Shown here piece by piece: positions 45,018 to 45,882 of a DNA stretch of 64,000 nucleotides. A program made the position numbers and the translations under genes. A model generated the notes under the pieces. The model saw nothing but the letters and a program-made list of their open reading frames with translations, was not told the DNA's origin and searched no databases. The stretch is from Curvularia clavata. Its lineage: Eukaryota. The first letter of the stretch is position 1, and each line of letters starts with the position of its first letter. Location of the stretch: NCBI GenBank assembly GCA_023920165.1, contig CP089278.1:434001-498000 (forward strand), read 5' to 3'.

Positions 45018-45882
45018 ATGTATAGTCTGTTGGTTCTTGCCAGCGTCGTCGCGATTGCGGCCGGTCAATCCATGACCTCCATCCAGGAAACTGCGCCAGC
45101 AACTATCACCTCTGCAACCGCTTCCACCGCAAGACCTGCCAGCGCGGTAACGACTTCTTACGCTCGGTACACACCTATTAAAACCATTGATTCATGGGAA
45201 TGCGCGACAAAGAACATATCCGACTACCTTTTGCCCCCAATGCCCACCGGTGGCCTTCTCGAGGTATACTATGATCATTCAGGTGTAATCTACAGCGAAT
45301 GCGAAGAGCATATTCCAAAGCCGTTTACATCATACCCTGCTTGTCCTTCTGTTGCAAAAGCCAGTTGGTGCGCGGTAAGTTCCAGCCGACACTTACTAAG
45401 AGAATCTTACTGATATGATATAGTACGTACAGATACCAGTCTTGCCTTACTGGTGAAGAAAAACTCACTTCCTGGGCTTTTGCTGACCATTTGACGATAA
45501 CAGGTTGTCTACAGCCGTTCCGAGTTCAAATATGGCTGAGTTCCGCGCTTATACCAGCATAGCCTCTTCCTGGTGGGCTGCGCGCAGTTCCGCGCTACCT
45601 GACATCCTTGATGAATGTCCTAACACTTGGGAGGACTTGAAATGGGACATTCCTGGGGGTGAAATCTGGCTGAATGCAACTATAGCGCTTGCGGATTGTG
45701 AGAACGCAGAAAAGTTGGATGTAGATGCGAATGCCCAACCTGCTTCTGGGTCGCAAGTCGTTGCAGTATCCCAATCCCCTGCCGCTTCTCCTTCCTCACC
45801 AGCCAAAGAAAGTGCCTCAGGAACCAAAAAGATAGACATTTTCAGCGCATGGCTGGCGGTCAGTGCCATGTTCTTGTTCTAG
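45018..45882 (+). CDS. Secreted Cys-containing, probably GPI-anchored protein (244 aa); 130-nt twin intron 45374-45503
   Basis: Signal peptide MYSLLVLASVVAIAAG, S/T-rich linker, conserved-looking Cys/Trp core and hydrophobic C-terminus; exons 356+379 nt = 245 codons. Confidence 0.8.

Follow-up and report, generated by a model that had tools for sequence, protein, structure and literature searches.

A 130-nt intervening sequence in a gene for a DUF7735 protein is very probably a spliceosomal twin intron (stwintron) that is removed in two steps. The host gene lies on the + strand of the window, by which we mean the whole 64-kb stretch of DNA that was analyzed, and runs from an ATG at 45018 to a TAG stop codon at 45880-45882, with a product of 244 amino acids (aa). 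We infer two-step removal from what is observed directly, namely the layout of the sequence, its mature junction, the logic of the reading frame and five signals that are conserved in orthologues. The intervening sequence appears to comprise two complete U2-type introns, 45375-45423 and 45423-45503, which overlap by the single G at 45423, and its removal would require two consecutive canonical splicing reactions. The parts of the gene are as follows.

45018..45373, + strand: coding exon 1, all of it exonic in both routes; signal-peptide-like N-terminus and first half of DUF7735 (ORF, Pfam match, X2 contig)
45374, + strand: G, the first base of the split outer donor G/TACGT (putative [D1,2] route) or the last exonic base (putative [A2,3] route)
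45375..45423, + strand: upstream U2 intron, 49 nt, the internal intron of the [D1,2] route (sequence; orthologues)
45375-45380, + strand: donor GTAAGT of the upstream intron (sequence)
45409-45414, + strand: branch element ACTGAT of the upstream intron, with branch A 45413, 10 nt from the 3' end
45421-45423, + strand: acceptor TAG of the upstream intron, its last G (45423) common to both introns
45424-45428, + strand: half-donor TACGT that follows the internal TAG (sequence)
45423..45503, + strand: downstream U2 intron, 81 nt, donor GTACGT, the internal intron of the [A2,3] route; with G 45374 in place of G 45423 it serves as external intron in the [D1,2] route
45482-45487, + strand: branch element GCTGAC of the downstream intron, with branch A 45486, 17 nt before the 3' end
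45501-45503, + strand: final acceptor CAG (sequence)
45504, + strand: G, the first exonic base ([D1,2]) or the base that completes the outer acceptor TA/G ([A2,3])
45505..45882, + strand: coding exon 2; second half of DUF7735, a Ser/Ala/Pro-rich stretch and a hydrophobic C-terminal tail (ORF; Pfam match; X2 contig, 45504-45950)

Two orders of removal would lead to the same product. In the presumably ancestral and conserved [D1,2] route, the 49-nt intron would be excised first, G 45374 would be joined to TACGT to give the donor GTACGT, and the resulting 81-nt external intron would be cut at the CAG that ends at 45503. The [A2,3] route would follow the reverse order, which is possible because exon 2 begins with G 45504. 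The 81-nt intron would be removed first, TA and G 45504 would combine into another TAG acceptor, and the external intron of 49 nt, which begins with GTAAGT, would then be spliced out. By either route the predicted mRNA reads ..TGG TGC GCG TTG TCT.. (W-C-A-L-S) and encodes the 244-aa DUF7735 protein. Use of the outermost GT and AG in one step would leave one extra base behind and truncate the protein at 130 codons.

The [D1,2] and [A2,3] types were defined by Fekete et al. in 2017 (PMC5587772), and the elements of both are present in the window. With regard to [D1,2], G 45374 stands immediately before the 5'-most donor (5'-G/GT), and the internal intron is a complete U2 intron (GTAAGT, ACTGAT, TAG) of 49 nt, the minimum size given for such introns being about 42 nt (PMC5587772). 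The internal TAG/TACGT, together with the upstream G, yields the new donor GTACGT, and the external intron has its own branch element, GCTGAC, and its own acceptor, CAG. The correct mRNA is obtained only if the whole sequence including the 5' G is removed, and distal one-step splicing gives a +1 frameshift. With regard to [A2,3], G 45504 directly follows the 3'-most acceptor (HAG/G) and is present in unspliced contigs from three runs. The segment GTACGT (45423)..GCTGAC..CAG (45503) has in itself all parts of a U2 intron, and once it is excised TA+G is restored, with branch A 45413 located 10 nt upstream.

The reading frame constrains how the sequence can be removed. The exon 1 ORF stays in frame through GCG 45372-45374 (W-C-A) and closes in phase 0 at 45374, and the downstream ORF lies in the +1 frame, with codons that start at 45505 (L-S-T-A-V-P). 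G 45504 serves as the third base of the Ala codon GC/G, and excision of 130 nt leaves 244 aa plus a stop, i.e. 245 codons. Single-step GT..AG splicing of 45375..45503 instead produces a +1 frameshift and the sequence WCA-VVYSRSEFKYG-stop after 130 codons. The letters and coordinates given for the stwintron signals in an earlier note, made from the DNA sequence alone, are all borne out. This applies to the 49-nt inner and 81-nt outer intron, to the rebuilding of TA+G in the second route, to the single in-frame mRNA (WCA-LSTAVP, 245 codons) expected from both routes, and to the claim that simple splicing from GT (45375) to AG (45503) is out of frame by one nt and runs into a stop. The assignment to the [D1,2]/[A2,3] classes likewise agrees with the layout described in PMC5587772 and PMC9024468, with an overlap of one G.

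The mature junction is seen in a transcript-like contig. Fourteen sequencing runs matched the window, none of which (0/14) is on record as RNA, their kinds having been guessed, and the contigs of four runs (X1, X2, X13 and X14) were compared. A 981-nt contig of X2 (depth 8.96) joins 45373 to 45504 and skips exactly 130 nt; this is the sole joint listed, in one of the four runs. The joint is ambiguous by 1 nt, which is exactly G 45374, and the contig contains the mature junction that the earlier note had predicted, TGGTGCGCG followed by TTGTCT. Positions 450-873 of the contig correspond to 44950-45373 and positions 3-449 to 45504-45950. Upstream of 44950 the contig continues for about 108 nt and beyond 45950 for 2 nt, so that it spans roughly 44842-45952. 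Because this extent is that of one gene with short UTRs, we infer that the contig represents a transcript rather than genomic DNA. By arithmetic, a spliced transcript with two SNPs would lose about 23% of the 31-mers, which agrees closely with the reported share of 0.79 for X2-X5. It should be noted that the joint derives from one contig of one study, with the kind of run guessed, and that it could in principle reflect an intron-less DNA allele.

The remaining three runs confirm the unspliced sequence. X1 shares its organism label and both SNPs (45080 C>T and 45798 A>G) with X2, and it also contains an unspliced contig (45346-45668) with no differences from the window; thus, the intron is present in that haplotype. 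The contigs of X13 (45247-45541) and X14 (45412-45744) agree with the window with no gaps and no other letters. X1, X13 and X14 come from three studies other than that of X2, and their unspliced contigs confirm G 45504 with no differences. A unitig break at 45373 in X1 might mark a point where spliced and unspliced forms diverge; overlaps are irregular in X1, and we did not rely on it. The mature junction is 45373 to 45504, and the X2 contig, in which 130 nt are skipped, contains neither a micro-exon nor a different acceptor, either of which would have refuted the interpretation according to the earlier note.

The product of this junction is a complete member of a known protein family. Residues 51-119 of exon 1 match positions 5-72 of the Pfam DUF7735 profile (PF24870) with 45.2 bits, and residues 1-70 of exon 2 match positions 73-142 with 73.2 bits. 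Both exons score above the curated cut-off of 27 bits, and jointly they cover profile positions 5-142 of 147. The profile is continuous at the junction, position 72 lying in exon 1 and position 73 in exon 2, with no space for ten additional residues. Two full-length homologous proteins also have no insert at the junction: P0003, from Paraphoma chrysanthemicola (222 aa), reads SWCA-ISTAIPSS, and P0004 (227 aa) reads RWCA-LSTAVPSS. The closest named relatives are from Paraphoma chrysanthemicola and Plenodomus biglobosus (68% identity), which we take to be Pleosporales fungi. The 244-aa product has a hydrophobic N-terminus (mean Kyte-Doolittle value 2.14 over 16 residues) and a hydrophobic C-terminus (1.73 over the last 15 residues), 6 Cys, 2 N-glycosylation sequons and a Ser/Ala/Pro-rich stretch. 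These features are compatible with a secreted and possibly GPI-anchored protein, the idea of a GPI anchor being drawn solely from the hydrophobic termini.

Gene models of the window and of its relatives break off or deviate at the same place. A protein search with exon 1 at similar lengths retrieved seven proteins (P0006-P0012). The first is the window's own ORF call (131 aa, window 45018-45413), which reads through into the intron (..WCAVSSSRHLLRESY), and searches for longer proteins found no full-length self match for the 244-aa product. This fits the suggestion of the earlier note that the stwintron is probably unannotated. Six other proteins (P0005, P0007, P0008, P0009, P0010 and P0012) likewise read through with WCA-VS.., which indicates that at least six further relatives have an intron beginning with GTNAGY at this position. 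In the read-through of P0005, the residues C-S-T-F at codons 16-19 after WCA are compatible with GCAG/TACGTT; this is suggestive and was not counted.

We searched metagenomes for orthologous loci and obtained 14, which were sorted by tblastn with the two exon translations. Four of the 14 (L001, L002, L003 and L004) are interrupted at this position. As L003 and L004 differ at 12 of 2381 positions, they were treated as one, leaving three independent interrupted loci. Seven further loci (L006-L012, 33-40% identical) have contiguous halves within one ORF of 247-253 codons and no intron. Thus, the stwintron position is occupied only in the closer group. The intron-free loci show the junction context SWCA/FTTAAP at position 2500/2501, on contigs of up to 54 kb. 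Only exon 2 was matched in L005, L013 and L014.

The four interrupted loci share the layout of the window. Each starts with a G followed by GTAAGT or GTATGT, and the internal introns are 50, 133, 50 and 50 nt long, with the internal branch A always at a distance of exactly 10 nt from the internal CAG. TACGT follows the internal CAG, so that the outer donor becomes GTACGT, and a second branch element is located 14-18 nt before the final CAG. In 4/4, splicing in one step breaks the frame, and the [D1,2] product keeps it and is conserved (WCK-LSTAVPSS, WCA-ISTAVPSS and CA-VSTAVPSS). In the alignment, GGTA.GT, the branch CT.A, AGTACGT (45422-45428) and the final CAG are invariant in 4/4 loci, as is one A four bases upstream of the final CAG. 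The remaining intron sequence diverges (mean column identity 55%), and L002 contains an 83-nt insertion. The inspection of orthologous introns that the earlier note had called for therefore finds its two branch points and AG/TACGT core in three independent loci, and the conserved layout fits what would be expected of a [D1,2] stwintron.

The main remaining rival, which we regard as improbable, is the excision of all 130 nt in one non-canonical step, from GG (45374) to AG (45503) or from GT (45375) to GG (45504), with no role for the inner AG/TACGT. The mature joint is formally of the form GG..AG with an ambiguity of 1 nt, and the mRNA would be identical. The joints expected of the intermediates (45374 to 45424 and 45422 to 45504) are absent from the contigs of the four runs, and since contigs drop rare forms we give this no weight. 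One-step excision leaves unexplained, however, the invariant internal branch, its fixed spacing of 10 nt and the AGTACGT found in 4/4 loci. Selection on the internal acceptor and on the T-ACGT half-donor, as this conservation suggests, would be predicted by two-step removal and not by one-step non-canonical splicing. Moreover, the ends of the orthologous introns would be GG..AG or GT..GA, and to our knowledge neither is a known U2 or U12 pair. In the published cases the two-step path has been demonstrated by cloned intermediates (PMC5587772).

A second alternative, less probable still, is an ordinary intron that is out of frame through a 1-nt assembly error, or that uses another canonical pair. 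An assembly error is rejected, since the unspliced contigs of X1, X13 and X14 agree across the intron ends and match the window without gaps. The other canonical pair has a precedent in the NCBI model of P0011 (Plenodomus biglobosus), which reads WCA-VT-VPSS where the family has WCA-ISTA-VPSS. In the near-identical locus L002 (2035-2243) the [D1,2] product is WCA-ISTA-VPSS. Apparently, instead of the stwintron the annotator took an in-frame GT..AG pair whose donor and acceptor lie further downstream, by 4 nt and about 10 nt, respectively. The corresponding pair in the window (donor GT 45379, acceptor AG 45513-45514) is in frame too and would give WCA-VT-VPSS. The joint in X2 runs from 45373 to 45504, however, and not from 45378 to 45515, and the pair 45379/45514 deletes the ISTA/LSTA residues that the Pfam profile, P0003 and P0004 retain. 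P0011 is a visible mis-annotation, mis-spliced at the stwintron site, in line with PMC5587772, according to which automatic annotation never gets [D1,2] stwintrons right.

Least credible, and refuted by several lines of evidence, are two ordinary introns, 45375-45423 (or -45432) and 45453-45503 (donor GTGAAG), on either side of a 29-nt or 20-nt micro-exon (45424/45433-45452), whose intact frame the earlier note does not mention: both versions are in frame and stop-free in the window, adding YVQIPVLPYW or IPVLPYW, yet the sole joint seen (X2) skips all 130 nt, the Pfam profile runs uninterrupted from 72 to 73, P0003 and P0004 have no insert, the donor does not have the usual G at +5, and reading beyond the internal AG meets stop codons in L001, L002 and L003/L004, so that the micro-exon is not conserved. 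Because the micro-exon and the pair 45379/45514 are also in frame, the frame argument alone is no proof of a stwintron.

Returning to the two-step stwintron, its second route differs between the window and the orthologues. In L001, L002 and L003/L004 the final CAG is followed by A, and only in the window by G (45504); the HAG/G of the [A2,3] type is thus absent from the orthologous loci. With an A after the CAG the rebuilt acceptor would be CAA, which makes the [A2,3] route impossible in the orthologues, and as the G occurs only in the window the alternative route is lineage-specific. The junction codon is GC/A in L002 and L003/L004, AA/A in L001 and GC/G in the window. By parsimony with three outgroups, a synonymous A-to-G change (GCA to GCG) would have created the second route. 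Removal of the downstream intron first would then be a dead end in the orthologues and formally productive in the window's species. A tentative but plausible reading is that, in the window's species, an old stwintron with the [D1,2] route only became a two-route one through this single synonymous change, which would be the opening step of the '1-nt intron shift' pathway known from the literature. Among the orthologous loci obtained, no canonical intron displaced by 1 nt was found. Should both intermediates occur in RNA, a silent codon change would have altered the robustness of splicing and opened the way to the loss of either half. The locus offers a natural comparison, with orthologues limited to [D1,2] and both routes in the window's species, in which the use and robustness of the second route can be tested.

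We also scanned the window with published sequence patterns. The strict pattern from 2017 for A. nidulans (GGTRWGY..HAGTRWGY..) has no match in the window, with 0.07 expected from 100 dinucleotide shuffles; it misses the locus because the outer donor has C at +4. A relaxed pattern with N at +4 matches at three starts (45374, 45367 and 56231) in two independent places, with 0.16 expected in 100 shuffles. The start at 45367 is spurious and overlaps the match at 45374. The match at 56231 is a false positive, a plain 92-nt intron (56232-56323) in frame. It belongs to a gene at 56112-57511 for an Arg/Gly-rich (RGG-repeat) protein, in which this first intron is ordinary (GTATGT..CTAAC..CAG), and the relaxed pattern fits it only by extending into the coding exon. 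The search model of 2022 lists GTACGT and T+ACGT as allowed (PMC9024468), and on our reading of its spacings the window locus would conform to them. The motif by itself is weak evidence, and the case stands on the X2 contig, the protein family and the conservation in orthologues.

The arrangement resembles stwintrons described in Trichoderma reesei and in Helminthosporium solani, a Pleosporales fungus. There, as here, two U2 introns overlap by one G, a G precedes the first donor and another follows the last acceptor, and both orders of removal would give one mRNA. These alternative [D1,2]/[A2,3] stwintrons lie in the alternative oxidase gene of H. solani and in the DHA1 antiporter gene of T. 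reesei (PMC5587772). The size class is similar, with 66 + 88 nt in T. reesei, where both intermediates were cloned (PMC5587772), and 49 + 81 nt in the window. In contrast to these cases, the host gene encodes a secreted-type DUF7735 protein, the evidence here is the mature junction rather than demonstrated intermediates, and three orthologous loci have the [D1,2] route only.

Unique [D1,2] stwintrons have been reported in lipS of A. nidulans and, numbering 81, in Hypoxylon sp. CO27-5 (PMC5639578, PMC9024468); for one Hypoxylon species 117 [D1,2] stwintrons are given (PMC9024468). Like these, the window locus has an outer donor split between G1 and T2, a distal one-step product with a +1 frameshift and a single position conserved among related species; its outer donor, GTACGT, is one that the 2022 motif model allows. 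One-step distal splicing of [D1,2] stwintrons, with its +1 frameshift, is described as occurring rarely (PMC9024468). The [D1,2] geometry is also shared with the sister stwintrons of Hypoxylaceae/Xylariaceae as these are described in PMC8469720 and PMC12403724. Sister or introner-like elements occur in many similar copies with internal symmetry, and neither property is found within the 64-kb window. No second copy of the intervening sequence exists in the window (the best other match is 13 nt), and its RNA fold is not unusual (z = -0.53; 56 of 200 shuffles fold as well). Thus, we conclude that, within the 64-kb window, this stwintron occurs uniquely and does not belong to the propagating sister type.

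Long animal introns that undergo recursive (ratchet-point) splicing are likewise removed in steps, the first of which also regenerates a 5' splice site. There, in contrast, no splice signal is interrupted by another intron. The window shows the feature by which PMC5587772 defines a stwintron, as the GT that is restored takes its G from a position upstream of the first donor.

The mechanism itself has been described (Fekete et al. 2017), and what is gained is an additional well-supported example, with no new principle. A full-text literature search found no paper containing 'DUF7735'. This gene and position were also not found in the stwintron texts that were consulted, though the locus may be listed elsewhere. 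Stwintrons are rare and commonly mishandled by gene callers. At this locus the only ORF call on record is the 131-aa read-through, and the relative's NCBI model drops four conserved residues. Once the layout is recognized, the correct 244-aa protein follows for a whole group of Pleosporales-like DUF7735 genes.

Of the interrupted orthologues, L003 and L004 carry an additional peculiarity. Their stwintron signals are intact, and so is the 227-codon ORF, apart from TAG in place of TGG at two conserved Trp codons (L003:599-601 and L003:810-812, the same in L004). The Trp residues concerned are that of SWCA and the first one of SSWW, and each TAG stands in a C-TAG-T context. This gene could be either a pseudogene that arose by G-to-A (RIP-like) changes or one in which A-to-I editing of the mRNA repairs the stops. 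Fungal A-to-I editing is reported to prefer U at -1 and hairpin loops, often at UAG (PMC11156358). The first TAG of L003 has no such fold (z = 0.26), and the A of the second TAG occupies the final position in a 4-nt hairpin loop (z = -2.40; 4 of 200 shuffles fold as well).
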